Positions 14,752 to 34,912 of a DNA stretch of 36,278 nucleotides are shown in pieces (the first letter of the stretch is position 1; each line of letters starts with the position of its first letter). The DNA is taken from IMG/VR virus record IMGVR_UViG_3300006162_000032. One strand, written 5' to 3'. A program made the position numbers and the translations under genes. Source of the stretch: a virus. The notes under the pieces were generated by a model that saw only the letters and a program-made list of their open reading frames with translations, did not search any database and was not told the origin of the DNA.

Positions 14752-14766
14752 CTGCGATTATCGCAG
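14752..14766. promoter_or_regulatory. palindrome CTGCGATTATCGCAG (copy 1 of 2) between stop codon and family-A element
   Basis: second copy CTGCGATTCTCGCAG at 15592-15606 in identical context AAACATATCT-pal-TGATACGAGGGCC. Confidence 0.5.
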
Positions 14767-14770
14767 TGAT

Positions 14771-14800
14771 ACGAGGGCCGTGGGGAAACCCACGGTAAGG
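14771..14800 (+). repeat. family-A stem-loop element (GGTAAGG variant)
   Basis: ACGAGGGCC-gtggggaaacccac-GGTAAGG. Confidence 0.8.
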
Positions 14801-14853
14801 CACAAGCCGGGGGCACGAATCCGGCGGTGACCTTAAAAGTGGAGAGGAAAAAT
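14794..14853 (+). promoter_or_regulatory. family-C leader with hairpin GCCGGGGGCACGAATCCGGC
   Basis: GTAAGGCAC...GTGACCTT-AAAAGTGGAGAGGAAAAAT-ATG. Confidence 0.4.
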
Positions 14854-15069
14854 ATGGCACCCGAAAAACCAAAGGCCAAGACGGTAACCGTAGAGCTGCG
14901 CGTGGTTGATCCCAAGAAGGGAGCAGTCAAATACAGCCTTCCCAAGGATCAGTCCGGCGTACTCACCAACATCTACGTCAACCGTCTGGAGGCGATGAAA
15001 GAACTGGGTATCTCTGAACTCGGGGACCTCAAGGGTTTCAAGGTTACCCTGGAACCTATTACTGCGTGA
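14854..15069 (+). CDS. hypothetical protein (71 aa)
   Basis: GGAGAGGAAAAAT-ATG. Confidence 0.5.
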   Translation: MAPEKPKAKTVTVELRVVDPKKGAVKYSLPKDQSGVLTNIYVNRLEAMKELGISELGDLKGFKVTLEPITA

Positions 15070-15098
15070 CGAGGGCCGGCCCATCTGGGCCGGTAAGT
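15069..15098 (+). repeat. family-A stem-loop element
   Basis: TGA-CGAGGGCC-ggcccatctgggcc-GGTAAGT. Confidence 0.8.
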
Positions 15099-15111
15099 AC
15101 CGGAGGAAACA

Positions 15112-15234
15112 ATGAACAAACTTAAACAACTCGGAGAGTACGTAGTAGTACTGGCGGTCGTCGTAATCATTATCATCGGCAGTCGCCACCTAATCGGCGA
15201 CAATGTTAATCTGGTTTATAGCGTGGTTCGTTAA
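15112..15234 (+). CDS. hypothetical 40-aa membrane peptide
   Basis: CCGGAGGAAACA-ATG; TM VVVLAVVVIIIIG; below ORF-track cutoff. Confidence 0.35.
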   Translation: MNKLKQLGEYVVVLAVVVIIIIGSRHLIGDNVNLVYSVVR

Positions 15235-15261
15235 CGAGGGCCGTGGGAAACCACGGTAAGT
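15234..15261 (+). repeat. family-A stem-loop element
   Basis: TAA-CGAGGGCC-gtgggaaaccac-GGTAAGT. Confidence 0.8.
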
Positions 15262-15297
15262 CAATCTCCCCATTGACTTGAAAGGAGGACGCGCGAT

Positions 15298-15405
15298 ATG
15301 TGGCCATTTAACTTGCACCCCGTCTTCATGGGGTTTACCTGGTTTGATATCTCCGCAACCGCGTGGTTTTTTTTGTTGTGGTTGTTGTATCGGCAAGTTC
15401 ACTAA
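15298..15405 (+). CDS. hypothetical 35-aa hydrophobic peptide
   Basis: GAAAGGAGGACGCGCGAT-ATG; Trp/Phe/Leu-rich. Confidence 0.3.
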   Translation: MWPFNLHPVFMGFTWFDISATAWFFLLWLLYRQVH

Positions 15406-15416
15406 AGGAGAAAACA

Positions 15417-15575
15417 ATGAAAACACTGTGGAAGTCCGAAGAAGGGCAAGATATCGCAGAATACGCCGTGATGCTGGCGGTAATTCTGGTAATCGTCGTC
15501 GGTACGGTTCGCCTGATTGGAAGCAATTCCAATAACGTTTTTTCAAGTGCGGCGAGCGCCGTGGCGGCGCAGTAA
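15417..15575 (+). CDS. flp: Flp/Fap-family type IVb pilin-like protein (52 aa)
   Basis: MKTLWKSEEGQDIAEYAVMLAVILVIVVGTV matches Flp pilin signature (EEG-x-x-x-IEY-[AG]-hydrophobic stretch); CTAAAGGAGAAAACA-ATG. Confidence 0.55.
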   Translation: MKTLWKSEEGQDIAEYAVMLAVILVIVVGTVRLIGSNSNNVFSSAASAVAAQ

Positions 15576-15591
15576 AAATAAAAACATATCT

Positions 15592-15606
15592 CTGCGATTC
15601 TCGCAG
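15592..15606. promoter_or_regulatory. palindrome CTGCGATTCTCGCAG (copy 2 of 2)
   Basis: see 14752-14766. Confidence 0.5.
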
Positions 15607-15610
15607 TGAT

Positions 15611-15640
15611 ACGAGGGCCGCGGGGAAACCCGCGGTAAGT
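15611..15640 (+). repeat. family-A stem-loop element
   Basis: ACGAGGGCC-gcggggaaacccgcg-GTAAGT. Confidence 0.8.
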
Positions 15641-15706
15641 ACAGCCGGGAAAAAATCCCAAACAAGAAACTTAAACCGTCTCTTGTTGCTGTACCAGGAG
15701 AGGAAC
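15637..15706 (+). promoter_or_regulatory. family-B-like structured leader (variant, paralog of 5118-5183)
   Basis: TACAGC/GCTGTA P1, GGGAAAAAATCCC, AACAAGA...TCTCTTGTT, CCAGGAGAGGAAC-ATG. Confidence 0.55.
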
Positions 15707-15946
15707 ATGAAACTAATCTACGTTATCAACCACCATTCCAATGAAGATTACATGAACAATCTGGCAATCGTCGAAGTAGGACCGGACGACGCCTCTGAAA
15801 GTGGAATGACCATCGGAACAAAAATTGAACGGTACAGAAATTTGTTAAAGGTTAAGTACCCGTTTCATCATTCCATCGTGTTCATGGGTCACTTCCAGGG
15901 AGGTATTCATGTAATGCCATTCCAAGATTTAGAGATATTCATGTAA
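15707..15946 (+). CDS. hypothetical protein (79 aa); C-terminus altered by 32-bp tandem duplication
   Basis: start after conserved leader; ORF-track extension LLYQERN is translated leader. Confidence 0.5.
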   Translation: MKLIYVINHHSNEDYMNNLAIVEVGPDDASESGMTIGTKIERYRNLLKVKYPFHHSIVFMGHFQGGIHVMPFQDLEIFM

Positions 15947-15968
15947 TGCCATTCCAAGATTTAGAGAT
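15905..15968 (+). repeat. perfect 32-bp tandem duplication (ATTCATGTAATGCCATTCCAAGATTTAGAGAT x2)
   Basis: directly visible; without second copy the gene would end ...DLEI-TGA-CGAGGGCC as at other family-A junctions. Confidence 0.9.
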
Positions 15969-15971
15969 ATG

Positions 15972-15998
15972 ACGAGGGCCGTGGGAAACCACGGTAAG
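15972..15998 (+). repeat. family-A stem-loop element
   Basis: ACGAGGGCC-gtgggaaaccac-GGTAAGT. Confidence 0.8.
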
Positions 15999-16068
15999 TA
16001 TGGTTAATGAGGGGAAACCTCAGAACCAAGAGACTTCGTCTCTTGGTTTGCCATACCAGGAGAGGAAC
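15999..16068 (+). promoter_or_regulatory. family-B structured 5' leader
   Basis: ATGG..TTAATGAGGGGAAACCTCAG; P3 AACCAAGAGAC/GTCTCTTGGTT; TTGCCATACCAGGAGAGGAAC-ATG. Confidence 0.6.
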
Positions 16069-17172
16069 ATGAGTACAGCAACGTACCAAGTTACATCACC
16101 CGTGGACGATCCCTACTCGTCTTTGATTGATGAGTTTCTGTGGCGGGAGTTTCCCGTCGCCGCGGCTCCTCCAAAACAATCATTGCTCGAGATTATCACC
16201 GGTATTCTCTTGGGAACGAACCAGAATCGTTATGGTCCGATCCCGAAACCCGAGGCACTGGTGACAATTCGGGCGGTCATCCGGCAGAGTCTCGAACTGG
16301 GTAAGGCAATTCCGGTGCTGGTTCCCTGGGGCGGCCGAAAGGCCAAGACGGGGGCCATTCTGGATGTGGCCGAGGTCATGGCACTGAAACAACTCGCCTG
16401 CCTTTACCGGCAGGTTCGGGAAGTCTTCACACCATCTATCCAGTTTAATCTTCGTGTTGAAGATATCAACGCGGAGTATCTCTACCAAGAAGATGGCCCA
16501 GTCGGAGCAGAAATGGTGGAAGAGTACTCACAGGGTTTGTCGGCCTTGGTTCGGATTCTAAATCTTCATTTTGTGAATCCGGTCCGGGAAAAACATCTGA
16601 CTACCTATGAGGCCTACTTTGCCCTGGCCGACCAGATACAAGATGCCATGTACGAGTATCTGGTGGATAGTGACCAACCGGGTTATGACCGGAATAAATC
16701 CAAGTCTTGGGCAAAATTGCAGGACTTGGGTTGGTCTGGGGAAATTCCCACGGAGCAACGGGAGTATTACCGTCGACGGTATCGGGCCTGGGAACCGGGC
16801 ATTACGGAGTTCGCGGCCAATGTCAAGTTGGCGCGGTACTTCGCGGGCGCCCTGGCCCGGTACAAACTGCGGGCCTCGGGCGCAGATAAAAGTTGGACTG
16901 ATTATATTCAGATCAGCTTTACGCCGCCCGTACCCGGTGCCCCGGAGTCCTTTACCAATCGCATGTTGTACTATCGAACCATCGTCGAACGTTTGTCCAG
17001 AAATCACATGCCACCCTGGCGGGGTCGGGGTTACATTGCAATGATCGGACGGACGGCGGTTCCCAAACTTGCAAGTTTTCAAGAAAATCTTTCCTTGATT
17101 TCGCACCAAACTCGGTTGTCGAGAAACGGGGAAGACGTAGATGTTGATACAAGTTATTTGGTCAAACAATAA
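16069..17172 (+). CDS. hypothetical 367-aa protein (likely enzyme; no motif recognised)
   Basis: long ORF after family-B leader; ORF-track N-terminal 23 aa are translated leader. Confidence 0.65.
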   Translation: MSTATYQVTSPVDDPYSSLIDEFLWREFPVAAAPPKQSLLEIITGILLGTNQNRYGPIPKPEALVTIRAVIRQSLELGKAIPVLVPWGGRKAKTGAILDVAEVMALKQLACLYRQVREVFTPSIQFNLRVEDINAEYLYQEDGPVGAEMVEEYSQGLSALVRILNLHFVNPVREKHLTTYEAYFALADQIQDAMYEYLVDSDQPGYDRNKSKSWAKLQDLGWSGEIPTEQREYYRRRYRAWEPGITEFAANVKLARYFAGALARYKLRASGADKSWTDYIQISFTPPVPGAPESFTNRMLYYRTIVERLSRNHMPPWRGRGYIAMIGRTAVPKLASFQENLSLISHQTRLSRNGEDVDVDTSYLVKQ

Positions 17173-17201
17173 CAGAGGGACGCGGCGAACCTGCCGCGTT
17201 A
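17172..17201 (+). repeat. family-A-like stem-loop (ACAGAGGGAC-gcggcgaacctgccgcg-TTAATG)
   Basis: variant flanks. Confidence 0.55.
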
Positions 17202-17219
17202 ATGAACAGGAGGGAAAGC

Positions 17220-17411
17220 ATGCCAGAATTAGATCGGGTTTGGATGTTGGTAGATCGAGAAGGGGTAGTTTTGTATCATCGCCCCGGAACATCTGCCAGC
17301 GAGGCCTGGGAGTATGCCGTAAAGGACGTGAAGGATATCACGGGGTGGGATGCCAGTCTTCTCAAGAAAAAGGGCTTTCGAGCAAAAAAAAGTGATTATC
17401 AGTTTGCCTAA
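17220..17411 (+). CDS. hypothetical protein (63 aa)
   Basis: CAGGAGGGAAAGC-ATG. Confidence 0.5.
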   Translation: MPELDRVWMLVDREGVVLYHRPGTSASEAWEYAVKDVKDITGWDASLLKKKGFRAKKSDYQFA

Positions 17412-17431
17412 TAAGCCCATTCCTAGTAACT

Positions 17432-17460
17432 CAGAGGGCCGTGGGTAAATCCACGGTAAT
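17432..17460 (+). repeat. family-A stem-loop element (CAGAGGGCC ... GGTAATGG) fused to family-B leader
   Basis: CAGAGGGCC-gtgggtaaatccac-GGTAATGG. Confidence 0.75.
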
Positions 17461-17524
17461 GGCAATGAGGGGAAACCTCAAACATGCGGCTTCGCCGCAA
17501 TGTTTGCCATACCAGGAGAGGAAC
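17455..17524 (+). promoter_or_regulatory. family-B structured 5' leader
   Basis: TAATGGCAATGAGGGGAAACCTCA; P3 AACATGCGGC/GCCGCAATGTT; TTGCCATACCAGGAGAGGAAC-ATG. Confidence 0.6.
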
Positions 17525-17695
17525 ATGAAAGAGCCAATTAAAGTAGAACTCGGAGAAAAAGAATTGCGAGAATTATTAAATGGCCGCACAATCACCGTGC
17601 GGGATCGGCACCGCGAGATAGAAATCACCGCCACCGCGGCGGGGTTTCTGGCCGAGCGTGCGGTGATGGACGAAAATCCCGTTTTGAAAGTGTAA
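17525..17695 (+). CDS. hypothetical protein (56 aa)
   Basis: start after family-B leader. Confidence 0.5.
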   Translation: MKEPIKVELGEKELRELLNGRTITVRDRHREIEITATAAGFLAERAVMDENPVLKV

Positions 17696-17709
17696 AAGTA
17701 GTGGTAAAA

Positions 17710-17742
17710 ACGAGGGCCGGGGGATATATTTCCCCGGTAAGT
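17710..17742 (+). repeat. family-A stem-loop element
   Basis: ACGAGGGCC-gggggatatatttcccc-GGTAAGT. Confidence 0.8.
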
Positions 17743-17763: not shown

Positions 17764-19113
17764 GTGGAAGAAAAAGAATTATTAGATCGTGCAAAATCCG
17801 GCGATCAAGACGCGTTCTCCCAAATATATCGTGACCAGTTATCGCGGGTAAAAAAAACTTTGCGCAAATATTGGCAACTGAATGAAGACGCCGTGGAAGA
17901 ACTGGCCCAGGTGACCTTTACGAAGGCCTTTCTGGCCATCGGCGATTTTCGAGGTGAGGCCAAATTAAGTTCCTGGTTGCATCAAATTGCGCACCGGGAA
18001 TTTTTGATGTACCTACGAAGAAAGAACAATCTTTCAGAAGTATCCTTGGATAATCCCATCAATGAAGATGGAAACACCCTGGATTTGCCGGATACTCCGG
18101 ATAAAACCATAGATTCCTGGATCACACGTGAGCATTTTTTGCGCTTGTTACCGTATTTGAATAGGAGCCGGCGCCGCGTGTTGTTTCTTAGATTTCTGGA
18201 AGAAAAAACTTTGGAAGAAACCGCCGGAATTTTAAATTTGTCCGTCGGGGCCGTAAAGGCCTATCAATCACACGGTTTGAGTGATCTTCGAGTGTTGTGG
18301 GAGAGCAAATCAATGAGCAAATCAATGAGCAAGAAAAAACGAAGGTTGCGGCGCGAAAAACTGGTCGCCGCGGCCGCCCGGGAACACATCGGGAGTCCAC
18401 CACCGACGCAAATACGAAGTTCACGGAATGCGGGGGCGTCCAGATTCAATGAAACGGAACTGGGTAGTTATTACCATCTGAGCGGACGCGACCCTCGTGC
18501 CCCGAATCAAATATTTACGTCGCACGGACTTCTGGCAAAAACCCCCGTGAATCTCCGTCCCCCCCGGACGGTCACAGCACCGGGGCCGGTTCGGCAGTAT
18601 ACCCAGGAAGAGATTGTTCATCAAAACTATCTCTTTCAACTAAAACAACAAGGAGAGAAAACAATGGAACAAATACCAAGTGGATCACCACCGACCATCG
18701 AGTCTTTGATATCTGATGCCCATCGCAAGGTACAGTTTTATACCCGGCAGGCCGCGGAATCCGAGGCCGAGGCCCGTAAGTGGACCGCGGTGATTGAACA
18801 ACTGACAAGTGCCCACGATATTATCACGGGAAAGAAGTCGATTAATGCGACGGCCCATGATGAGGTCAATGGAAATGCCCCGCAGACTCGTTCACCACGA
18901 GGATATTGGGAACCGGTCTTAAAACAGATACTCGCCGATGGGCCTCTTCCTAAGAACGAATTAGTTCAGAAGATGATGACCGCGGGTACCACAAATGGTC
19001 AGGCCTATTCGATCATCCGTCGATGCCAAGATAAAGAATTAATCCTGGAATCGGATGGAAAACTGCACTGGATGGCGCCGGTCACCGAAGAACAACCGAG
19101 GGCCGCGGGGTAA
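17764..19113 (+). CDS. ECF-type sigma-70 family factor (regions 2 and 4) with about 260-aa C-terminal extension
   Basis: region 2: AVEELAQVTFTKAFLAIGDF...SSWLHQIAHREFLMYLRRK; region 4: RRVLFLRFLEEKTLEETAGILNLSVGAVKAYQSHGLSDLR; AAAGGAGAACGTAA-GTG start; in-frame internal AAGGAGAGAAAACA-ATG at 18664. Confidence 0.75.
   Translation: MEEKELLDRAKSGDQDAFSQIYRDQLSRVKKTLRKYWQLNEDAVEELAQVTFTKAFLAIGDFRGEAKLSSWLHQIAHREFLMYLRRKNNLSEVSLDNPINEDGNTLDLPDTPDKTIDSWITREHFLRLLPYLNRSRRRVLFLRFLEEKTLEETAGILNLSVGAVKAYQSHGLSDLRVLWESKSMSKSMSKKKRRLRREKLVAAAAREHIGSPPPTQIRSSRNAGASRFNETELGSYYHLSGRDPRAPNQIFTSHGLLAKTPVNLRPPRTVTAPGPVRQYTQEEIVHQNYLFQLKQQGEKTMEQIPSGSPPTIESLISDAHRKVQFYTRQAAESEAEARKWTAVIEQLTSAHDIITGKKSINATAHDEVNGNAPQTRSPRGYWEPVLKQILADGPLPKNELVQKMMTAGTTNGQAYSIIRRCQDKELILESDGKLHWMAPVTEEQPRAAG
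18303..18326 (+). repeat. 12-bp tandem repeat (GAGCAAATCAAT x2) inside sigma-factor extension (SKSMSKSM)
   Basis: directly visible. Confidence 0.8.
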
Positions 19114-22398: not shown

Positions 22399-22437
22399 AA
22401 TACCCAGGTCCATTTTTTAGACCTGGGTATTTTTTTG
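22399..22437 (+). terminator. rho-independent terminator (ATACCCAGGT ... ACCTGGGTAT + TTTTTTT)
   Basis: 10-bp stem followed by T7 run. Confidence 0.75.
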
Positions 22438-22446
22438 CCCAAAATA

Positions 22447-22488
22447 TCAGTGTCAATGTCAGTATCAGTATCAGTATCAGTAGCAGTT
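22447..22488. repeat. imperfect hexanucleotide microsatellite (TCAGTA)x7
   Basis: tcagtg tcaatg tcagta x4 gcagtt. Confidence 0.8.
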
Positions 22489-22637
22489 TAGCAACATCTG
22501 ATACTCATAAATAACCACCCCCTCCCCGATTTTTACGTTTGAAAAAAATTTATTTTCTCAGTTGCTTACTTTTTTTCGTTTCCGGAGTATTATATCCCGA
22601 CCTAAGAAGTTCGCTAAAATAGAGGTGAAAAACACAA

Positions 22638-22829
22638 ATGAAAACAACTCCGCCGAAATTCGCTTGGAATCGGGGAAAGACGGACAAGAGCAAAGGTTTT
22701 GTTCGGGTCAGTCCGTTTTACGAAGATGACGTGGCGGACTATTTCTGGTTCGCCGGTTGGGACGGACGTACGTTTGAAGAAGCACAACAAACTCTGGTTG
22801 ACAAGGAGCACGCGAGTGAAAAAATCTAG
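22638..22829 (+). CDS. hypothetical protein (63 aa)
   Basis: AGAGGTGAAAAACACAA-ATG. Confidence 0.45.
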   Translation: MKTTPPKFAWNRGKTDKSKGFVRVSPFYEDDVADYFWFAGWDGRTFEEAQQTLVDKEHASEKI

Positions 22830-23142
22830 ACAACAAAAAATTGAAGAGTACGGTATTGCGATGCACGCCCTGCAAAGTGGCATCGCATTTTCTCTGGCTA
22901 AAAAAAATCCCACGGTTCCGGATATAAATCAAAATCCTTATCTCCGGGAACTAAAGCATCAACGGGTGGGGATCGACGGGACAAAATCTGATCATAGCGC
23001 CCTGGTAAAATTACTGATCGAAAGGGGAATCATCACCGACGAAGAGTACATTGATGCCATGTTAGAAGGTGTGATCGCCGAGGTTCATCGGTATGAAAAG
23101 GCGCTCAGCCAAGAGTATGGCGTGAAGGTAACCCTCCTATGA
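22816..23142 (+). CDS. hypothetical protein (108 aa), GTG start
   Basis: AAGGAG + 7 nt + GTG; ORF-track longer version overlaps previous gene without RBS. Confidence 0.45.
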   Translation: MKKSRQQKIEEYGIAMHALQSGIAFSLAKKNPTVPDINQNPYLRELKHQRVGIDGTKSDHSALVKLLIERGIITDEEYIDAMLEGVIAEVHRYEKALSQEYGVKVTLL

Positions 23143-24311
23143 ATACAAATCTCGACGCTCTCATTATCAATTCATACGCCGGCAGCCTGGTGCTCGGAGC
23201 GCAATCTACCGGACTAGAAATTCGTGGGTCTTATGAAGACTGCGGGTTTGGTCTTCCGATCCAGAAATTGAACTTTCCGAAGTTGAAATTTGTGGAAAGA
23301 ACCCCCTGGCCAAAAGACAATTTGTCTTCTACCATTGTTATTGCCCACCCTCCCTGCGCGGCCTTTTCCAATCAAAACAATTCAGTCTCCCGCAAGGGTA
23401 TTAATACGGACGCCTTTAAGTGTCATCGGGAGGTGATGGACTATTCGATGAGCAACCGGTGTGCGGCCCTGGCCATCGAGTCGGTCCCCGGTGCGTTAAA
23501 GGCCCAGGCGGAGTATGCCAAGTATGCCCGGAAGTACAACTACACCCACTACTTCATACATTTAAATTCGGCCAGTTTCGGGGTCTCGCAATGGCGTCCC
23601 AGAGTTTGGATGATATTCCTGCGCGACCTACCACGGTTGGTGGTAAATCCTCCGTGGGAGTGGAAGACCGTGGGAGATATTCTACAAACCCCCGAAGAAT
23701 ATGAGGCCGCCGTCGGGGCCGGGATCGAACCAAATGTCATGATGAAGAAGTTACTGGATTATTTCGGCAAGAAATTCAAGACCGCCGAGTTTAACTTCGA
23801 AGAGTTTTTGAAATTTGAAAATATCGGATCGTTCGTACCGGCCGTGGCGGAGTTCCTGAATATTGAAAAGACCCGCGAGGCCGTTAACAAGGCCTGCGGT
23901 ACCTCGGGATTGTTCGGGGTTCGGTTGCCGCGGAAGATGGACCTACGGTGGTTTTCTCCGGTGATCCTGGACGATAGTTTTTTCTTTGCCAATGGTCGCC
24001 CCCTGACGATGATCGAGTACCAAAGAATCATGGGATTCCCCGATGATTTTAAATGGCCAGAAAATCTCAAACGAAAATTCACCATGTATCTTTCCAAGGG
24101 CGTGGCACCGCCGGTCGCGGCCTGGATCGCAAAGACTTTGGTCATGAATTGTGAGAAGACCATCTCGTTATCTCCCGCCCGTACCCAGGTCGGTGCGCCC
24201 GGTGAAATTCTGGATATCCGGCCGAATACCGATCAGGCCAAGGAGGCCGTCAACCGGAGTCGCAACAAGACATTACCATTCGTCGGAAAGTTTAAGAGGG
24301 CCGCGGTATGA
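23139..24311 (+). CDS. DNA (cytosine-5)-methyltransferase-like protein
   Basis: motif IV HPPCAAFS (PC), motif VI IESVPG (ENV-like), motif VIII QWRPRVW (QxRxR), N-terminal SYAGSLVLG (motif I-like); correct order. Confidence 0.6.
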   Translation: MNTNLDALIINSYAGSLVLGAQSTGLEIRGSYEDCGFGLPIQKLNFPKLKFVERTPWPKDNLSSTIVIAHPPCAAFSNQNNSVSRKGINTDAFKCHREVMDYSMSNRCAALAIESVPGALKAQAEYAKYARKYNYTHYFIHLNSASFGVSQWRPRVWMIFLRDLPRLVVNPPWEWKTVGDILQTPEEYEAAVGAGIEPNVMMKKLLDYFGKKFKTAEFNFEEFLKFENIGSFVPAVAEFLNIEKTREAVNKACGTSGLFGVRLPRKMDLRWFSPVILDDSFFFANGRPLTMIEYQRIMGFPDDFKWPENLKRKFTMYLSKGVAPPVAAWIAKTLVMNCEKTISLSPARTQVGAPGEILDIRPNTDQAKEAVNRSRNKTLPFVGKFKRAAV

Positions 24312-25456
24312 AGTTTCGAGATTATGTCGACCAGGATACATTAAGAAAGTACCTGGATGAAAAAATTGTGACGGTTCGTTTTCATCCCCGTGCGCCCCTG
24401 GCAATATACAATTATGGCCGACGTGCACAGTTCGAAAACATCTGGGACAATGTCACTGTCCGATGCCGTGGGTTGATCGTGGATCAAAAAATGGGCGACG
24501 TGATCGCCCGCCCATTTGAGAAATTTTTCAATTTAGGTCATCAAGGAAGACCAGAGACGAATTTTGAAAACTTGCCGTCGGAGGAACCAGAGGTTACTGA
24601 AAAAATGGATGGTAGCCTGGGAATTTACTATCGGTACGGTGATCTGTCGGGAATTGCCTCACGGGGTTCTTTTGACTCTGAACAGGCCCTGTGGGCAACT
24701 CAATGGTATAAAATTCATTTGATAGATTCTCAATGGCCGGAAACTTTTACACCTCTATTTAAAATTGTCTACCCCGGCAATCGCATCGTTGTTAAATACG
24801 ACTGGGAAGGACTCATATTACTTGGCATGGTTGAAAAAGAATCGGGTCGGGAATTATACCACCGGCATCTGGTTGGTTACGGCCAGAAAAATAACTGTCG
24901 AGTGGTTCCATTGTTCAATAAGTCTATTGCCGACTGCCGGACTGAGGAACAAAATAACGCCGAGGGTTACGTCGCAACTTGGAACCATGGACTGCCCCGA
25001 CCTCCCCTAAAAATAAAAATCAAATTTATTGAGTACCGTCGTCTTCATCGGTTAATGACCGGCAGATCTCCCAAGGAAATATGGAGGATGCTGAAAGACG
25101 GGGAAGTCTTCGATGCCGATGTACCGGAGCACTATGCCGAGTGGTTACGGGGCTGGAGAGAATTACTTTTGGGTGAGTATTACCGACTGGAGACAAAAGC
25201 AAAAAATATCTACGACACTTGCGACTTGGAAAAAGATGGTCAGAACAAAGATTCCCGTCGAAAACTGGCGGAATACTTTAACCGGGTTGAGCATCGTGAG
25301 GTCAACGGAGTTCTTTTCAAAATGTTGGACGGCGAATCCTACCAGGAAATTATCTGGAAACTTATCAAACCTCTCACAAAGAGTTATGATCCTTTTCGAG
25401 TCGCCGGCTTGATTTTCTTCGGGTCGACTTTTTTCGCCTCGGCGGTTAGCGAATAG
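24308..25456 (+). CDS. ATP-dependent polynucleotide (RNA) ligase-like nucleotidyltransferase
   Basis: motif I KMDGSLG (KxDG), motif IV-like AEGYVATW, motif V LKIKIKF (KxK); no DNA-ligase OB/extended domains; ATGA overlap. Confidence 0.55.
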   Translation: MKFRDYVDQDTLRKYLDEKIVTVRFHPRAPLAIYNYGRRAQFENIWDNVTVRCRGLIVDQKMGDVIARPFEKFFNLGHQGRPETNFENLPSEEPEVTEKMDGSLGIYYRYGDLSGIASRGSFDSEQALWATQWYKIHLIDSQWPETFTPLFKIVYPGNRIVVKYDWEGLILLGMVEKESGRELYHRHLVGYGQKNNCRVVPLFNKSIADCRTEEQNNAEGYVATWNHGLPRPPLKIKIKFIEYRRLHRLMTGRSPKEIWRMLKDGEVFDADVPEHYAEWLRGWRELLLGEYYRLETKAKNIYDTCDLEKDGQNKDSRRKLAEYFNRVEHREVNGVLFKMLDGESYQEIIWKLIKPLTKSYDPFRVAGLIFFGSTFFASAVSE

Positions 25457-25843
25457 ATGTTGAGGTTTTCGGCGGCAAAATGCAGCGGCGGGGCAAGCAT
25501 TAAATTTGGGAATTATATAGTTAACTCCCTTGCGGGAGAGAAAGTAGGTCACGTGAAAGAAAATAAATTCATCGCAGAATCGGGATGGCCGCAAGTGCAT
25601 GGTCAGATTTCAACCGTCAGTTTTCAAATCCAATCTGGGCCGATCAAGGAGTTTGGCGAGAACGGATGCCAGATCGACGATGTGATCGAGTGGGCGAAAG
25701 AGAAGATCGAAGGTTTCAACAAGGCTTTCCCCTGCCGAGAGAACTCTGTAATCATCACCAAACTCGACGAGGCGCTTCTGTGGTCGCTGAAACGCAAGAT
25801 GGATCGAGAGAAACGCAGCGTCGAGGGAACCAATAAGGCATGA
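25457..25843 (+). CDS. hypothetical protein (128 aa)
   Basis: ATG immediately after ligase stop (TAGATG). Confidence 0.4.
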   Translation: MLRFSAAKCSGGASIKFGNYIVNSLAGEKVGHVKENKFIAESGWPQVHGQISTVSFQIQSGPIKEFGENGCQIDDVIEWAKEKIEGFNKAFPCRENSVIITKLDEALLWSLKRKMDREKRSVEGTNKA

Positions 25844-26079
25844 ATCACAAAGACCTAGCTGAGCGTGCTTCCCGGATGGCTATGCCGTCATCCGGGGATG
25901 ACGCCGCTGACCAGAAGGCGCTTTTGGATGCCGCATTGCATCAGGCACGGATGGAAGAGAACATCTGCCCAAACGGTTGCGGCCCGATGATTTGGGACGA
26001 TCCAAACAATCGGCATTGTCCCGCGTGCAACTTTCACGGCTGGTGCAATGTGCCCTATTCCGGTGCAAAGCAAGCCTGA
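25840..26079 (+). CDS. Zn-finger-like hypothetical protein (CPNGC ... CPACNFHGWC)
   Basis: ATGA overlap. Confidence 0.45.
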   Translation: MNHKDLAERASRMAMPSSGDDAADQKALLDAALHQARMEENICPNGCGPMIWDDPNNRHCPACNFHGWCNVPYSGAKQA

Positions 26080-26156
26080 GAAACGACTTAGGGAGTTATG
26101 TATATAGTTCCCTTAAATTTACCGACGAGATGTTCGAGGCCCACGTAAATACCCTG

Positions 26157-26245
26157 GCACCGGAGAAGAGAAACGGGCACCCCGGTCCCATAAGGATATT
26201 CCGGGGGATACCGGGTGCCGAAAAATTATGAAAAAATTTTTATTT
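26157..26245 (+). terminator. complex GC-rich inverted repeat (GGCACCGG/GGGCACCCCGG ... CCGGGTGCC) followed by A/T-rich tract; possible terminator
   Basis: 9-bp+ inverted repeats, then AAAAATTATGAAAAAATTTTTATTT. Confidence 0.3.
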
Positions 26246-26368
26246 ACATCAAGGTGATTTTTAGGATAGGATTCTCGCCGCGCGGTAGAAAACGCGAAGC
26301 GTACGATAATCAATATTTGGGTTCTGGCGAGTGGTTCTGCTCGCGAAGAGCCAAGAAGGAGAAAAACG

Positions 26369-26578
26369 ATGCTAGTTGAATTCACCGATGGGGACGGGAT
26401 TAGCGTATTGATCAATTCGGAGCATATTAGTGCGGTGCGCGAGGGTCGAGCAGGACAAAACGTGTCTATCTGGATAGGTACCGACATTAGAATCAACGTG
26501 AGGCAATCGTTTGAAGAAACGAAGAAGCGTCTGGGCCTTGCGATCACGCCGCGAGCAGAAACGTTGGCGATTCGGTGA
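26369..26578 (+). CDS. hypothetical protein (69 aa)
   Basis: AAGGAGAAAAACG-ATG. Confidence 0.45.
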   Translation: MLVEFTDGDGISVLINSEHISAVREGRAGQNVSIWIGTDIRINVRQSFEETKKRLGLAITPRAETLAIR

Positions 26579-26606
26579 TTGAGCGAGACATCCACCAGGA
26601 GAATGA

Positions 26607-27212
26607 ATGCAATTCATCGGAGATGTTCATGCGACGACAAAAGGCAACATGGAGAAGTACCTCGCTCTACTCGGTGAAGAACCGAGCATACAAGTCGGCG
26701 ACCTCAACATCGGTTTTGCCGGCGTTCATCTCCCTAATTTGCCCCGGCGGCATCGATTCATTCACGGGAACCATGACAATCCGGAAAAATGCCGGGGGCA
26801 TAAAAATTACCTGGGAAGTTATGGATACTTTCCAGATCTTGCTTTATTCTACGCCGGGGGCGCCTTCTCGATTGACTATATGTCGAGGGTACCGGGGCGT
26901 AGTTGGTGGCCGGACGAGCAACTGAGCATGCAACAGTGGGAAGATGCCGCGGCTCTGTACGTACGGTCGAAACCGAAGCAGGTGGTGACGCATGATTGCC
27001 CTCTCCCCGTTGCGCACCTCCTGCTTCGAGAGATGTCAAACTTTTACGACCCGGACCGGACACCGGATGCCACCAAAGAGGCATTGGAGGCCTTGTTCAA
27101 TTTTCATCGTCCCGAAATCTGGGTATTTGGTCACTATCATGTTTCACGAGACTTTGAATACGAGGGCACCCGCTTTATTTGTCTCGCGGAACTAGAATCA
27201 AAGATTTTGTAG
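26607..27212 (+). CDS. calcineurin-like metallophosphoesterase
   Basis: GDVH, GDLNIG, GNHD, THD, GHYH motifs in canonical order; CAGGAGAATGA-ATG. Confidence 0.75.
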   Translation: MQFIGDVHATTKGNMEKYLALLGEEPSIQVGDLNIGFAGVHLPNLPRRHRFIHGNHDNPEKCRGHKNYLGSYGYFPDLALFYAGGAFSIDYMSRVPGRSWWPDEQLSMQQWEDAAALYVRSKPKQVVTHDCPLPVAHLLLREMSNFYDPDRTPDATKEALEALFNFHRPEIWVFGHYHVSRDFEYEGTRFICLAELESKIL

Positions 27213-27234: not shown

Positions 27235-27441
27235 ATGGATCAACTCAACTCCCGGGGTCATACTCGGGCCTGTACATGTTGCTTCGAGTGTCGTAGTGAA
27301 AACCGCCGGTGGGCGTTAAGCCTTCCGGCGGCCTTGATGTTAAATCCGGCGCTCAAAACCAATCGCTCTATTTTAATCAAGCGAAATCGTCTAATATATG
27401 ACGGTTTGAGAGGAAAAGAAAATGGCAGACGCAAAAAATGA
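27235..27441 (+). CDS. doubtful small ORF (68 aa)
   Basis: weak RBS; overlaps probable promoter/leader of MVP gene. Confidence 0.15.
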   Translation: MDQLNSRGHTRACTCCFECRSENRRWALSLPAALMLNPALKTNRSILIKRNRLIYDGLRGKENGRRKK

Positions 27442-29976
27442 ATTGATTCTGGCGCAGAATCAATATGCGTTCATTCAGGACGAGACCAAGGGAAGTGTGA
27501 AGGTCCACGTGGGGCCGCTTACCGTCACTCCGTCTGGCAATGACCGCCCGGTAGTCTATGATAACGAGACCCGTCGTTTTATTCAGGCAACTTCTTTGAA
27601 AGAGGCCGTACAACAGAACACCACCGTCGATGAGGGTTCTTATGTAATTTTGGAGAACCCCGCCGACAAGGGCAACAATCCGCCGGCCGGCGCCTCTTCA
27701 CTGCCGACTGATTTACAGATTGGCCGTAAGATCAATATTCCTGGTCCGGCGACCTTCGCCCTTTGGCCGGGGCAAAGTGCCCAGGTCCTAGAGGGACATC
27801 AGCTTCGTTCCAATGAATACCTGGTGGCCCGCGTCTACGGCGTCGAAGAGGCCAAGAAAAATTGGCCGACGGTCGGTACTCGCCTTCCCGAGTTGCCAGA
27901 TAATTTGGCCACCGGACAATTGCTTGTGATTCAGGGAACAGACGTCAACTTTTTCATTCCTCCCACGGGAGTAGAGGTACTCCCCGATCCGGTGACCAAG
28001 ACACAGTACATTCGTTCTGCGGTGACCCTGGAACGATTGGAATACGTGATTCTTCTTTCAGAAGATGGCAACAAGCGTTATGAAATCGGACCCAAGGTGG
28101 TCTTCCCACTGGCCACGGAAAAATTTGTTACCAAGTCTGACGACGGACGGGCCGGTATCAAACAGAAGGCCATCGAGTTGACTGACCAGATGGGTATTTA
28201 TGTTAAGGTTATTGCCGACTATGAGGATACCACCAACTTCCTTGGTCCCAATAACACTCCGTTGGGCCGGCGGGAATCAAGTGCCGAGGCGGCACCCGTC
28301 GAGGGTCGGCGACCTCCAAAATCAGAGAACAAGTATTCTTACAAAGTTGGTGATGAATTGTTCATCACCGGCAAGCAACAACGCATCTATTACCCTCGGT
28401 CGGAACACGCCCTGATTGAGTATGATGGCGAAGATGCCCAGGGAAATAAGTTCAAACGGCAGCGGTATTATGCCGTGGCCATTCCCGAGGGTGAGGCCCG
28501 TTATGTTCTGGACAAGATCACGGGTAAGATTGACAAGGTATCGGGACCGCAGGTGTTCCTTCCCGATCCTCGTTATCAGACCATTGTGCGTCGTATTCTG
28601 AGTGACAAGGAAGTTTCTTTATGGTATCCGGGCAACTCTACCGCCGTGGCCTTCAACCAGGCCCTACGGGCAACTTCCCAGGACGCCACGATGGACTTTG
28701 TCCAGGATATGACTCATAATACAATGGACCTGGAACGATCGATGAACCGTATGACCAAAGGTTCTCCGATCATGGCCAGTAACAGTTATTCCGGGGGTAC
28801 CGGAGTGTGTTGGCCGGGGCCGCGGGGGAGACTCTGCGGCGATCCGGAAAATACACCCCGCCTCCGTCGTTGACCCTGAACACGAAATACGACGGGGTAC
28901 CCGTCGTTGAACCCTGGACGGGTTATGCCGTCCAGGTGGTACGCCGCAATGGAAGTCGGCAGGTTATCAAGGGGCCGGCCTCGATTCTTCTGGGATATGA
29001 CGAGACTCTGGAACGGGTGACGTTGTCCACCGGAAAACCCAAGACCACGGACAAGCCGATGGAAACGGTTTATCTGCGGGTAGACCATAACAAGGTTTCC
29101 GATTTTGTTACAGTCGAGACTCGGGATATGGTCAACGTAGAAATCTATGTTTCCTACCGGGTCAATTTTGAGGGCGACGCCAACAAGTGGTTCTCTGTTG
29201 AAAACTACGTGAAGTTCCTGTGTGACCATCTTCGTAGCCTTTTGCGGGCGAAGGTAAAGCACCTGACAATCAAGCAGTTCATTGATTCCTCGTCGGCCAT
29301 CATCCGGGACACAGTGCTGGGCGAGCCGAAGGACGGCAAGCGGGCGGGAAAGGTATTTGACGAGAACGGGATGCGCATCTATGACGTCGAAGTCCTTCGG
29401 GTAATGATCAAAGATGATACCATCTCCGGCCTCATGGTCAAGACCCAACGCGACACCGTACAACAAACTTTGAATCTTTCCGCCAAGGAAAGTGAAAAGT
29501 TGTTGACGGAGAAACTCACCGAACTGGAGATGGCCCTGGCAGATTTGAATAAAGCCTCAAGTCTGCATACGATTGAAGTGGAGAAGACCATCGCCCAGGC
29601 CAACGCCGACTTGTCCATGCAAAAAGAGGAGTCGGTACGCGAACGAAGTATCAGGGCCAAGAAACATGATGTGACGATCGCCGAGATTTCTCATCAGGTG
29701 GCCTCGGAGAATCTGGCCGTCGACGAGGCCCGGGCGGAGCACGAACAAAAGGTACTGGAGGGAGAAACGGCCGAGTATGTAAAACGACTGGCCGCGATTT
29801 CTCCGGAACTGGCAAAGGCCATTGTTCTCATTGGAAACAATGACCTTGCCGAAAAACTGGCCGAGGCGGTCGCGCCCCTGGCCGTGGTGGAACAACAGGG
29901 GATCGGTCCGATTTTGGGCCGTATCTTTCATGGAACACCGGTAGAAAAGATTCTCAACCAGATCGAAGACAAATAA
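27422..29976 (+). CDS. major vault protein (MVP) homolog: MVP repeat domains + SPFH-like shoulder + cap-helix coiled coil; reading frame broken near 28790-28830
   Basis: Part 1 27422..28873: GEARYVLDKITGKIDKVSG vs human MVP NEGIYVQDVKTGKVRAVIG; YKVGDELFITGKQQRIYYP vs VVAGDEWLFEGPGTYIP. Part 2 28807..29976: GVPVVEPWTGYAVQVVRRNGSRQVIKGPASILLGYDETLERVTLS vs [45 protein letters not shown], followed by a coiled coil. G-runs (ccggggg, cgcggggg) at the junction. Confidence 0.65.
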
Positions 29977-30030
29977 CCCAAACAAGGGACCGGAGAAATC
30001 CGGTCCCCATCTTAATTCAAGGAGAGACAC

Positions 30031-31383: not shown

Positions 31384-32907
31384 ATGATCACAATTGACCC
31401 ATCTCGTTTTAACTTGAAACCGTTTAAGCACCAGTTGGTTGGAACCTCGGCCCTGGTGCGACACCCCTATTTTGCCTTATTCGACGAGATGGGCGTTGGT
31501 AAAACGAAACAGACCATCGACGCCGCCTGCGTACTTTTTGATAACTCTGAGATTGACACCGTGGTCATCGCCTGTCCTGCCCAGGTGAAAACCGTGTGGC
31601 TTGATCCCGATCTGGGAGAAATCCAGAAACATGCCTGGGTAGAGTCGGTTGTTCATCACTTTCACGGAAAGACTCGGGACCTGAGATTCGGCCGGGGACT
31701 CATTTGGATTGTGGTCTCTTACGAATTGATTCGACAGGACCCGCCCCTGAACATACTTGTCAAATTATTGCGTGGACGGGAAACGATGTTGGTCATGGAC
31801 GAATCTATTTTTTTGAAGAGTCCCAAGGCCAGTCAGACTAAACAAACATATGAATTGTCTCTTCATTGCAAGCGGCGTTATCTTTTGAATGGCACCCCCA
31901 TCGGAAATAACCTTCTCGATTTGTACTGCCAGTTTAAGATGTTGAGTCCCGAGATTCTGCAATGTAAGTCCTACTTTCATTTTCGGGCACGATATGCCAT
32001 CATGGGAGGGTTCAAGAACAAGCAGATCGTGGGATTCAAAAACGCGGAGGAGGTCAATCGGCTCACGGCGCCCTATGTTCTACGGCGGCTTAAAGAAGAC
32101 TGTTTGGACCTTCCGCCCAAGACTTATTCCCACATGACCGTTGCCCTGACGCCGGAGAACTGGAAAAAGTACAAATCCATGCGGGATGACATGGTGGTGT
32201 GGCTCGGGTCGGATGCGTGTATGGTCCGGCACGCCCCGGTGAAGGCCCTACGCCTTGGGCAGATTACCTCCGGGTTCCTCGGAGGCATCACCGAAATGTC
32301 GCAGGAGGAATGGGCACTCTATGGCATTATGGACGGCGACCCCATCATGCAAGAGACGGGCGAAACCAGAACGGAGGAAATCGGACGTGAAAAGTTGGAT
32401 GGAACTATGGATTGGCTCGAAAGACGATTCGACGAAAACGGTGCTTTCCGCACAATTATCTGGTGCCGATTTAGACCGGAACTTGATCGAATATATGACG
32501 AAATACGCGGGTGCAAAAATATCATGCGAACTGGTGTACACCTTCACAGCATCCGAGGACAACAATCAAAGAGAGAAAGAACTGACGCAGTTCGCGAGGG
32601 TATGGCAGGAACTGGACCCGCGATTATTCTCGGACAGCCACACGCGGGTGGTCTGGGACTCAATCTCACCACCCTTCCAAATGTCATGTATATTTCGAGT
32701 GACTATTCACTCCTCGCTCGCCTCCAGTCCGAAGATCGCGTCCATCGTCCGGGACAAACTCAAAATGTTGGGTACACTGACGTAATTGCCACCGGGCCAG
32801 ATGGACAGAAGACCATCGACCACGCCGTGATTAAGGCCCTTCGCAACAAAGAAAATCTTGCCGACTGGACCACGGATCGTTGGCGGTCGGCCCTATTGGA
32901 GGAATAA
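31384..32907 (+). CDS. SNF2-family DNA-dependent ATPase/helicase
   Basis: motif I DEMGVGKT, II LVMDESIF, III GTPIGNNLLDLY, V GGLGLNL, VI QSEDRVHRPGQTQNV. Confidence 0.85.
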   Translation: MITIDPSRFNLKPFKHQLVGTSALVRHPYFALFDEMGVGKTKQTIDAACVLFDNSEIDTVVIACPAQVKTVWLDPDLGEIQKHAWVESVVHHFHGKTRDLRFGRGLIWIVVSYELIRQDPPLNILVKLLRGRETMLVMDESIFLKSPKASQTKQTYELSLHCKRRYLLNGTPIGNNLLDLYCQFKMLSPEILQCKSYFHFRARYAIMGGFKNKQIVGFKNAEEVNRLTAPYVLRRLKEDCLDLPPKTYSHMTVALTPENWKKYKSMRDDMVVWLGSDACMVRHAPVKALRLGQITSGFLGGITEMSQEEWALYGIMDGDPIMQETGETRTEEIGREKLDGTMDWLERRFDENGAFRTIIWCRFRPELDRIYDEIRGCKNIMRTGVHLHSIRGQQSKRERTDAVREGMAGTGPAIILGQPHAGGLGLNLTTLPNVMYISSDYSLLARLQSEDRVHRPGQTQNVGYTDVIATGPDGQKTIDHAVIKALRNKENLADWTTDRWRSALLEE

Positions 32908-34043: not shown

Positions 34044-34230
34044 TCTTGAAAAAGTGAGACGGGCGCGGACGGCCGTACGACAAGTGGTAGAAGACATGCA
34101 GGACGAACCGGCCGATGCCTTTGTTCATGCGGCCCTGTCGGCTTGTGAGGCCCTGGACCCGATCCTTGGCGAACTAGAAGCAAAAGAGGCAGAAAAGGAG
34201 AGGAATGAAAATAATTCAACCCTACGCTAA
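33970..34230 (+). CDS. hypothetical protein (86 aa)
   Basis: GAGAAGGAGGAACGAC-ATG; overlaps 3' end of DUF3310 gene. Confidence 0.4.
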   Translation: MFDWEILTDKMRDVWFAWRDRKLSDLEKVRRARTAVRQVVEDMQDEPADAFVHAALSACEALDPILGELEAKEAEKERNENNSTLR

Positions 34231-34912
34231 AATCATGGTACTGACCCCGGAGCCACTCCGGCACATCGAGTGGTGTGCCCGGATCAGTCATCGATCGGAG
34301 GATGCTTCGCCTAACACCGAACGGTTTATTAAAACGGTGGTCATGGACCATGGCGATTGGTCAGTGGTAGAACACGTCACCGCCTCGGTGGATGCCGTGA
34401 TGGACCGGGGTATAACCCACGAATGGGTACGGCATCGACTCGCCTCCTATACCCAGGAGAGTACCAGGTTTGTCAATTATGAGAAGAAGATGCCGCCGGC
34501 CTTTATCTACCCCATACCGGGAGTTGATTGCGAATATTGCCGGACGGGAGATGAACCCACCGTATCCGGAATACACCATCGTCCGGGTTTTCCTCTCTGT
34601 CAATACAATCGGGACTGGTTATGGATAATTCAAAACTGTGAAAATATGTATTGCGCGTTACTCAAAAAAGGTTGGCGTCCGCAGGAGGCCCGGAGCGTGT
34701 TTCCCAATGCCCTGGCCTCGCGTATCGTGACCACGGCAAATTTGCGCAGTTGGCGGCATTTCTTTTTGATGCGTACTTCCAAAGAGGCCCATCCGCAAAT
34801 GCGGCAGATCACGATTCCGTTATTGAAAGAATTTCAACAAAGGATTCCACTCTTGTATGACGATATCGTACCCGAGTCCCGGCAGATCGACAATTTGAAG
34901 TTGGGGAGGTGA
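34205..34912 (+). CDS. thyX: flavin-dependent thymidylate synthase
   Basis: ThyX signature RHR-x7-S (RHRLASYTQES); GAAAAGGAGAGGA-ATG. Confidence 0.8.
   Translation: MKIIQPYAKIMVLTPEPLRHIEWCARISHRSEDASPNTERFIKTVVMDHGDWSVVEHVTASVDAVMDRGITHEWVRHRLASYTQESTRFVNYEKKMPPAFIYPIPGVDCEYCRTGDEPTVSGIHHRPGFPLCQYNRDWLWIIQNCENMYCALLKKGWRPQEARSVFPNALASRIVTTANLRSWRHFFLMRTSKEAHPQMRQITIPLLKEFQQRIPLLYDDIVPESRQIDNLKLGR

Follow-up and report, generated by a model that had tools for sequence, protein, structure and literature searches.

Background

The anticodon nuclease PrrC is countered in bacteriophage T4 by Pnkp and the RNA ligase Rnl1 (gp63), of which the latter requires 3'-OH and 5'-PO4 ends, and anti-restriction is the role usually inferred for orphan phage methylases. 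Genes of both kinds lie side by side in a stretch of 36,278 nucleotides from an uncultured phage (IMG/VR record IMGVR_UViG_3300006162_000032), hereafter the window. An initial annotation had described a C5-cytosine methyltransferase, an Rnl-like ligase and a calcineurin-type metallophosphoesterase (MPE), located at 23139-27212, as a possible RNA-repair and anti-restriction module. It had missed a homolog of Tad1 (Thoeris anti-defense 1), and the region is therefore recast here as a multi-target anti-defence island.

Anti-defence islands consist of co-localised counter-defence genes and have been catalogued by AntiDefenseFinder (PMC11724313). An association between MPEs and RNA ligases is not new in outline either, as it was noted by Iyer, Aravind and colleagues: a T4-like tRNA ligase, cREC, a nucleotide kinase, MazG and, now and then, a phosphoesterase of the calcineurin-like type occur in phage neighbourhoods, and those phosphoesterases are predicted to resolve cyclic phosphates (PMC9503650, PMC7824862). 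Among bacterial repair enzymes, the phosphatase of CthPnkp is assigned to the lambda-like group (PMC2190708).

The genes on which the analysis centres are the following.

23139-24311, + strand: divergent C5-cytosine DNA methyltransferase, orphan (PF00145)
24308-25456, + strand: T4 Rnl1-family RNA (tRNA) ligase (PHROG 562), its start overlapping the methylase stop by 4 nt
25553-25843, + strand: Tad1-family sponge, probably 96 aa from a GTG start at 25553; the longest open reading frame (ORF) begins at an ATG at 25457
26607-27212, + strand: binuclear MPE of 201 aa (PHROG 1649) with a Dbr1-like phosphodiesterase-type core

The methylase, ligase and MPE ORFs described initially were all recovered on the + strand with significant family matches, in agreement with the gene callers of the source contig. 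On balance, we read the region as a variable counter-defence island of independent effectors, seemingly arranged in two adjacent units with similar AT-rich promoter-like motifs.

Results

A Tad1 homolog between the ligase and the MPE

The initial annotation had placed small zinc-finger ORFs between the ligase and the MPE. This holds for the ORF at 25840-26079, which is Cys-rich, but not for that at 25457-25843, which is a Tad1 homolog, as judged from both its sequence and its modelled fold. It matches CmTad1 (8kbb) with an E-value of 1.2e-14 and CbTad1 (7uav) with 1.3e-7, is 46% identical to the founding Tad1 of SBSphiJ7, and carries the precomputed Pfam label Acb2_Tad1_hairpin. In CbTad1, the residues F82, N92, R109 and R113 contact gcADPR and 2',3'-cGAMP, while R90 and T97 contact cyclic trinucleotides (PMC10680739); in the HMMER alignment the window protein has the identical residue at each of the six positions, and its subfamily is likewise invariant there. 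At the hexamer interface, three of the five residues mutated in the same study (E, W and K) are kept. A sponge of this kind would sequester gcADPR as well as the cyclic dinucleotides and trinucleotides that serve Thoeris and CBASS systems as signals.

Since homologs are mostly 94-96 aa long and a GGAGAG ribosome-binding site precedes the in-frame GTG at 25553, the real product is probably the 96-aa protein starting there. Its AlphaFold2 model (pLDDT 79) returned Tad1 structures as all of the top 12 Foldseek matches, with probability 1.0 each; no non-Tad1 match of this model was better than E 2, and no Acb2 structure was matched. The N-terminus is modelled less confidently, with only two short strands before the helices, and the core of the subfamily spans 94-96 aa.

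More than 1000 metagenomic homologs were found, most of them 94-96 aa long, and the best 120 share 66-91% identity with the window protein. The next-closest relatives of the window ligase, MPE and methylase stand at 53-85%. Members of the subfamily occur in unrelated contexts, beside a portal gene on one contig and near an integrase on another; two of them are listed here.

L256, 8001-8285: Tad1 subfamily member
L257, 8001-8288: Tad1 subfamily member

Such conservation across unrelated contexts suggests strong constraint and frequent transfer. Short and highly conserved, this 95-aa subfamily of Tad1 occurs widely among environmental phages.

An Rnl1-type RNA ligase

The ORF at 24308-25456 matches PF09511 (RNA_lig_T4_1) with an E-value of 3.3e-12 and PHROG 562 (T4 gp63/Rnl1) with 8.6e-60. 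The motifs quoted in the initial annotation are present and correspond to motif I (KMDGSLG, with K99) and motif V (LKIKIKF, with K237 and K239), whose columns are invariant in the family alignment. In the alignment of 13 ligase sequences, R54, K72, F73, K99, D101, G102, E152, E219, G220, K237, K239 and Y243 are invariant or nearly so. The profile built from it aligns to T4 Rnl1 (2c5u) over chain residues 45-365, including the C-terminal Rnl1-specific domain (E 6.8e-51), against 3e-9 for fungal Trl1 ligases and only 4e-3 for DNA ligase. The possibility raised at the outset that the KxDG protein belongs to the DNA ligase or capping-enzyme families is thus set aside: by these comparisons it is a real Rnl1-type tRNA ligase. 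TIGR02308 aligns to residues 50-363 with 51 bits, below its equivalog cut-off of 242, and the protein is therefore described as a member of the Rnl1 family and not as a demonstrated equivalog.

Among isolated phages, large Streptomyces phages have its best relatives, RNA ligases with 36% identity, and there a T4-type Pnk is encoded 0.8 kb downstream (e.g. Daubenski). Searching IMG/VR with the single ligase protein gave no confirmed match, and relatives in that database were retrieved with an alignment query. An Rnl1-type ligase would reseal tRNAs after abortive-infection nucleases have cut their anticodon loop.

The last 17 residues of the ligase form a hydrophobic tail which homologs do not have. 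The DNA encoding it (25396-25436) has the form of a terminator-like hairpin followed by a T-run, located just before the ligase stop and upstream of Tad1.

The initial annotation had recognised no P-loop kinase, and this was upheld on a wider scale: no Pnkp, AAA_33 kinase or ORF with a kinase-type Walker-A motif was found by tblastn and Walker-A scanning in the window, in 10 kb upstream and in about 4 kb downstream. The window was queried with phage Pnkp (E cut-off 10) and with the AAA_33 kinase and the HAD-family phosphatase of locus L045 (E cut-off 1; see below); the latter two were also run against L094 and L009, and the Walker-A scan covered all three sequences, returning only weak motifs in ORFs without kinase similarity. 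The kinase may be encoded elsewhere in the genome, a host kinase may serve, or the ligase may target breaks that already have 5'-PO4 and 3'-OH ends. From the chemistry of such nucleases, metal-dependent tRNases such as PARIS AriB and retron PtuAB would be expected to produce breaks of the last kind.

A divergent orphan methylase

The methylase matches PF00145 over profile positions 8-322 of 324, with an E-value of 7.7e-16 and 58.9 bits (cut-off 22). Its translation contains PPC, ESV (for ENV), QWRPR, GFPDDF and GVAPPVA, and C5 motifs I, IV, VI, VIII, IX and X follow in full order; it deviates in motif I (SYAGSL) and in the A which replaces Q after the catalytic PC. M.HaeIII is the best solved structure (E 3.7e-4). 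The 209 metagenomic homologs all belong to PF00145, and isolated phages are almost without relatives.

No nuclease or restriction endonuclease family was matched in the ORFs neighbouring the methylase, although a novel restriction endonuclease could be hidden among the small ORFs nearby. The enzyme would modify the phage DNA, on which host restriction enzymes would then fail. The alternative of a Dnmt2-like tRNA methyltransferase tied to tRNA repair was rejected, as the solved-structure matches comprise only HaeIII and HhaI, both weak, and no Dnmt2 chain.

Variable cargo between conserved flanking genes

Tad1, the methylase and Rnl1 lie within 2.7 kb, in a slot whose cargo differs between the window and two related loci, L259 and L260, although the genes around it are conserved. 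In L260, synteny extends to either side, with g170, p108, g207, g136 and a methylase of 62% identity on one side, followed by the SNF2 helicase (64%) and DUF7307 on the other; in the methylase-SNF2 interval, where the window has Rnl1, Tad1, the MPE and a major-vault-protein-like (MVP) gene, unrelated genes are found. L259 carries a g136-like gene, the methylase (53%), an ORF-free gap of 677 nt and the MPE (53%), with no ligase and no Tad1.

Two sets of related loci were compared on a broader scale: 80 IMG/VR loci with an MPE homolog, in which all neighbouring ORFs were clustered, and the 80 best Rnl1-anchored viral loci. Neither Tad1 nor this methylase occurred near the anchor in any of the 160, and in none was the combination of C5 methylase, Rnl1, Tad1, Dbr1-like MPE and MVP homolog found. 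A conserved module is argued against by these counts, by the different cargo of L259 and L260 and by the unrelated contexts of Tad1. Rather than a conserved RNA-repair operon, the cluster is a locus that behaves as a hypervariable accessory slot.

The gap of L259 between methylase and MPE (1511-2187) is GC-rich, without + strand ORF or Rfam match. Over 20 shuffles, a z-score of -2.83 was obtained for its predicted RNA fold, which is only suggestive; a non-coding RNA is one possibility for this gap and a decayed gene another. It opens with an AT-rich stretch similar to the promoter-like motif of the window. That a conserved RNA element lies between methylase and MPE was considered and discarded, since the gap has only this AT-rich motif in common with the window.

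An MPE with a Dbr1-like core

The product of 26607-27212 matches PF00149 with an E-value of 1.1e-6 and PHROG 1649 with 2.3e-28. Its metal-binding motifs (GD6xH8, GD32, GNH56, H129 and GH176xH178) are invariant in 55 homologs, and so is a family-specific block, GAFSID...R...SWWxDEELS. The AlphaFold2 model reached a pLDDT of 96, and the table beside it gives the following values for comparison of the MPE with other proteins.

Dbr1: 15.3
PptH: 14.9
MPPED2: 14.1
GpdQ: 13.7
Mre11, best chain: 12.7
Rv0805: 12.2
Lambda phosphatase: 7.2
PP5 and calcineurin: 6.6-7.0

The core is closest to that of Dbr1, the RNA lariat debranching enzyme, which is a 2'-5' phosphodiesterase. Against all PDB sequences, Dbr1 was also the only significant match of the MPE family profile (E 5.6e-10), while PP2A, lambda PPase and ApaH gave 0.006 or worse. 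The initial annotation had set a Pnkp phosphatase against lambda PPase for the MPE and had named a Ser/Thr protein phosphatase homolog as the finding that would refute its scheme. No such relationship was found: motif II reads GDxGxGF and not GDxxDR, and the MPE does not show the combination of GDxxDRG, GNHE and a closest fold of lambda PPase or PP1 that marks lambda/CthPnkp-type and PPP Ser/Thr enzymes.

Three features separate the MPE from Dbr1. The aligned motif I of the Dbr1 chains has Ser (IAIVGSVHG in 4peh), whereas the MPE has the usual Asp, with D6 invariant; wild-type Dbr1 has Cys at that position, 4peh being a C14S variant. Moreover, the Dbr1 chains extend to 351-360 aa with a C-terminal domain, whereas in the MPE motif VI is directly followed by the end of the protein, at residue 201, and the GAFSID...R...SWWxDEELS block belongs to the MPE family itself. 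Because Asp is kept in motif I and the C-terminal domain of Dbr1 is lacking, the MPE is not regarded as a Dbr1 ortholog.

In isolated phages, the family occurs in those of Rhodobacter, Ruegeria, Agrobacterium, Rhizobium, Sinorhizobium, Synechococcus, Streptomyces and Mycobacterium.

Neighbourhoods of the MPE family

The two commonest neighbour families in the 80 MPE loci are both RNA ligases, Rnl1-like in 13 and PF09414/PHA02142 (Rnl5-like) in 12. T4-type Pnkp was found in seven loci and the CCA-adding enzyme in five, and tRNA genes were present in 27 of the 78 loci where the MPE ORF was clustered. When RNA-repair genes were counted within 10 kb, 26 of the 80 MPE loci had one, compared with two of 80 control loci anchored on RecA/UvsX (Fisher p 4e-7); with loci of at least 15 kb only, the figures are 25/57 and 2/26 (Fisher p 9e-4). 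After dereplication at 70% MPE identity, a repair gene lies within this distance in 18 of 57 lineages.

Conversely, the 80 best Rnl1 loci hold Pnkp (17), a second ligase (22), the CCA-adding enzyme (10) and a PHROG 1649 MPE (6). In 15 of them a second small MPE family is found near Rnl1 (PF12850-type, about 185 aa). Its genes stand 1-8 kb upstream of Rnl1, mostly less than 4 kb (L133, L137, L146, L148, L155, L161, L163, L168 and others), and directly beside a PHROG 1649 MPE in L015, L054 and L056.

The clearest case is that of L045, with these genes.

L045, 8833-9999: Rnl1
L045, 9980-10597: MPE
L045, 10601-11122: AAA_33 P-loop kinase, 173 aa (E 8e-13)

Rnl1, the MPE and the stand-alone kinase overlap or abut, forming one operon (8833-12507 with the next gene); the kinase is followed by a 462-aa coiled-coil membrane-anchored protein, and a separate HAD gene resembling the Pnkp phosphatase lies 3 kb downstream (14367-14834). 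In L066, a kinase homologous to that of L045 comes directly after Rnl1, with the MPE and the CCA-adding enzyme upstream. L016 contains the closest Rnl1 relative with both flanks readable (53% identity), and here Rnl1 precedes the MPE by 3.5 kb, in the order of the window. In this locus (noted at 5350-7728), Rnl1 is directly succeeded by a second ligase, of PF09414 and with an OB domain of PHA02142, after which come four small ORFs, the MPE and RecA.

A complete kinase-phosphatase Pnkp is also carried by the MPE loci L029 and L033-35, and a separate HAD phosphatase is present in L045 and L090. As several MPE loci hold a complete T4-type Pnkp, the MPE is not simply a replacement phosphatase. A functional tie of the family to RNA 3'-end processing is plausible but partial, since 39 of the 57 lineages have no such neighbour.

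Proposed transcription units and other features of the window

The genes and signals surrounding the cluster are listed below.

22400-22437, + strand: intrinsic terminator, stem ACCCAGGTC/GACCTGGGT followed by a T-run, after the upstream gene and forming the 5' boundary of unit 1
22540-22556, + strand: AT-rich promoter-like motif TGAAAAAAATTTATTTT, upstream of unit 1
22816-23142, + strand: 108-aa ORF p108, its stop overlapping the methylase start by 4 nt; also predicted by the gene callers of the source contig
25840-26079, + strand: Zn79, a 79-aa Cys-rich (CxxxC...CxxC) zinc-ribbon-like protein, its start overlapping the Tad1 stop by 4 nt; called as a gene
26229-26272, + strand: AT-rich promoter-like region TGAAAAAATTTTTATTT, then TTTACA-18-TAGGAT, inside a gap of 289 nt
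26369-26578, + strand: s69, a 69-aa protein with a strong ribosome-binding site and no family match
27422-29976, + strand: MVP-like gene (PF11978, shoulder domain, E 4.8e-27)
29986-30007, terminator-like on both strands: GC-rich hairpin of 9 bp with 7 GC pairs, after the MVP-like gene

A p108 homolog in L260 is 46% identical, and p108 itself has no family match; Zn79 has only faint database matches. The gap of 289 nt divides the block of methylase, ligase, Tad1 and Zn79 from that of s69 and the MPE, and the region at 26229-26272 within it, going by its pattern, probably starts a second transcription unit. The motif TGAAAAAAWTTTTATTT has three + strand copies in the window (2812, 22540 and 26229), where 0.01 are expected, and two of the three (22540 and 26229) precede the two gene blocks. 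From the strong terminator at 22400-22437, the 4-nt overlaps and the motif common to 22540 and 26229, two transcription units are proposed: g63-p108-methylase-Rnl1-Tad1-Zn79 (about 22.55-26.08 kb) and s69-MPE-MVP (about 26.23-30.0 kb). The MVP-like gene is probably the last of the second unit, which probably ends at the hairpin 29986-30007. A CAGTAT-like short tandem repeat, CAGTGTCAATGTCAGTATCAGTATCAGTATCAGTAGCAG, occupies 22440-22485, after the upstream terminator and before the AT-rich promoter-like region.

The MVP-like gene, directly downstream of the MPE, encodes a homolog of the eukaryotic major vault protein. Its length on other contigs is 851 aa, and in the window a deletion of 1 nt near 28806 breaks it in two; its product aligns to MVP residues 467-815 (E 6e-10). 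For phages, the only report of MVPs is a 2023 gut-phage preprint (10.1101/2023.11.10.566534).

The window as a whole is a + strand early/middle region in which small genes are tightly packed. It also encodes an HslV-like peptidase and the following.

17764-19113: phage sigma factor
31384-32907: SNF2 helicase
34205-34912: ThyX

Contigs of ENA, JGI and Logan, up to 72-100 kb long, hold the identical sequence, the single difference of the ENA contig being one indel, that near 28806. No tRNA genes were found in the window by ARAGORN, and no Rfam families at the gathering threshold, nor at E<=1 within 22.0-31.5 kb; no near-identical isolated phage emerged when the region was compared with 50,697 phage records by megablast. 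Stop-codon recoding was rejected as an explanation for the abundance of short ORFs, since any one recoded stop lengthens the ORFs of both strands about equally.

Elsewhere in the window, a repeated intergenic element is present in 21 + strand copies of ACGAGGGCC (usual form AACGAGGGCCG), at 4422-17735 and at 35243. It is often followed after about 13 nt by CGGTAAGTACA (nine copies) and then by a AGGAGAGGAAC ribosome-binding site, and it stands before many small early genes, with no copy inside the methylase-MPE region. The element is probably a phage-specific promoter or regulatory site.

Discussion

The counter-defence reading of the region

The Tad1 homolog, the Rnl1-type ligase and the orphan methylase belong to their families with intact active or ligand sites, and the biological roles given to them here would be those of characterised family members. 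Of the module proposed initially, the counter-defence function and the RNA ligase are present, and the MPE family does often stand beside RNA ligases; a dedicated healing-and-sealing operon, on the other hand, was not recovered. The locus offers a compact natural case of a phage stacking protection against restriction, tRNA-cleaving abortive infection and TIR/cGAS-type nucleotide signalling.

Several observations weigh against this interpretation or parts of it. Rnl1 needs ends that a kinase would supply, and none is visible in the roughly 50 kb read. The NCBIfam dcm model TIGR00675 scores the divergent methylase below the model cut-off (E 5.9e-10). The promoters and units are read from sequence patterns. 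Regarding the MPE, 39 of the 57 lineages have no RNA-repair gene within 10 kb and L259 carries the MPE without a ligase, so that its function may be independent of the ligase; the RecA control loci, moreover, come partly from a different phage population and are shorter on average.

For the MPE, RNA 3'-end healing is the most likely role and our best guess, suggested by the neighbourhoods in other phages and not by this locus. The enzyme would hydrolyse a phosphodiester or phosphomonoester at RNA 3' ends (2',3'-cyclic phosphate or 3'-phosphate), and this would support RNA ligases and the CCA-adding enzyme. A bolder proposal, which we put forward tentatively and hold to be possible but not probable, is that the PHROG 1649 MPE is a phage-specific, Dbr1-derived RNA phosphodiesterase acting with Rnl1 or Rnl5-type ligases, and with an AAA_33 kinase in L045 and L066, in a split healing-sealing pathway. 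Such a pathway may be distinct from those of T4 Pnkp and bacterial Pnkp/Hen1; if true, it would let the window ligase repair tRNA without a T4-type Pnkp. The MPE could open 2',3'-cyclic phosphates or, in a more exotic role, cleave 2'-5' linkages in branched RNA, msDNA or 2'-5' immune messengers.

Alternative explanations

The foremost rival is the scheme of the initial annotation, in which methylase, Rnl1 and MPE form one RNA-repair and anti-restriction operon, the MPE taking for Rnl1 the Pnkp-like step that heals 2',3'-cyclic/3'-phosphate ends and the kinase being encoded elsewhere. A precedent for an MPE healing domain exists in bacterial Pnkp (PMC3675462, PMC2190708), and the enrichment of the family beside RNA ligases, Pnkp and the CCA-adding enzyme, the Rnl1-MPE-kinase operon of L045 and the conserved order at 3.5 kb in L016 all agree with it. 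We nevertheless consider it unlikely. The MPE is Dbr1-like and not lambda- or Pnkp-like, with GDxGxGF as motif II; between Rnl1 and the MPE stand Tad1, Zn79, the 289-nt gap with its promoter-like motif and s69, which makes a single operon doubtful; and L259 combines methylase and MPE without the ligase. Several MPE loci have, in addition, a complete Pnkp (L029, L033-35) or a separate HAD phosphatase (L045, L090). Finally, the window and its readable flanks have no kinase, and the methylase is linked to Rnl1 in none of the 160 other loci.

In a second rival, the MPE degrades immune signals beside Tad1, in a role like that of Acb1 or Apyc1, with 2'-5' or 3'-5' cyclic or linear oligonucleotides as targets. 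Tad1 does share the island, Dbr1, the nearest solved relative, cleaves 2'-5' bonds, and in a review of jumbo phages a counter-signal role is proposed for calcineurin-like phosphodiesterases that are orthologs of T5 A1 (PMC7824862). This is harder still to sustain, however, and we judge it distinctly improbable: tblastn placed a Tad1 homolog near the MPE in none of the 80 loci, the neighbours are instead RNA ligases, Pnkp, CCA-adding enzyme and tRNA genes, and the anti-defence literature searched gave no precedent for the PHROG 1649 family.

That the MPE acts on DNA or free nucleotides, as a small host-DNA nuclease like the MPE gp48 of cluster A mycobacteriophages or as a nucleotide-pool enzyme, unrelated in either case to the ligase, is the least credible reading and very unlikely in our view. 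In its favour, one reported phage MPE has phosphodiesterase activity, causes damage to host DNA and silences genes of defence (PMC12287305); the L016 MPE adjoins RecA, ThyX and a helicase lie near the window MPE, and 39 of the 57 lineages have no repair neighbour. Against it, the Mre11 capping domain and an adjacent SbcC-like ATPase partner are absent, and none of the 80 RecA-anchored loci has the MPE. A relationship to gp48 found little backing: only 17 Mycobacterium phage records matched the window MPE, the one listed among them being a weak match of 29% identity in ScoobyDoobyDoo (158 kb).

With the region read as a variable counter-defence island, the more useful lead is the uncharacterised family of small Dbr1-like MPEs and its statistical link to phage RNA ligases. 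Should the MPE be an RNA end-healing enzyme or a 2'-5' phosphodiesterase, it would represent a new enzyme class for phage RNA repair and a possible reagent; otherwise the region is an ordinary accessory-gene island.

Comparison with known systems

With the tRNA repair system of T4 (Pnkp and Rnl1), the locus has in common a ligase that is homologous to Rnl1 over its full length and retains every invariant nucleotidyltransferase residue, K99 included. It differs in that Pnkp, with its P-loop kinase and HAD phosphatase, was not found in the window or in its readable flanks, and in the low identity of the ligase to T4 Rnl1. The resemblance to bacterial Pnkp/Hen1, where kinase, lambda-like MPE phosphatase and ligase are joined in one polypeptide, is conceptual only; in L045 the three are adjacent genes. 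The neighbourhoods described by Iyer, Aravind and colleagues are centred on sirtuins and come from phages of E. coli and Proteus.

The Tad1 proteins of SBSphiJ7, a C. botulinum prophage and C. mangenotii (7UAV, 8KBB) share the two-helix hairpin core of the window protein, which is shorter, at about 96 aa compared with 122-125 aa in the two solved ones, and has a seemingly reduced N-terminal beta region.

With the anti-defence islands, the region has in common that families of known or accepted counter-defence role (Tad1, an orphan methylase and Rnl1) are neighbours among small ORFs, in a slot whose content varies between related phages. The locus is a fresh example of this known kind of island, and not a new RNA-repair machine.

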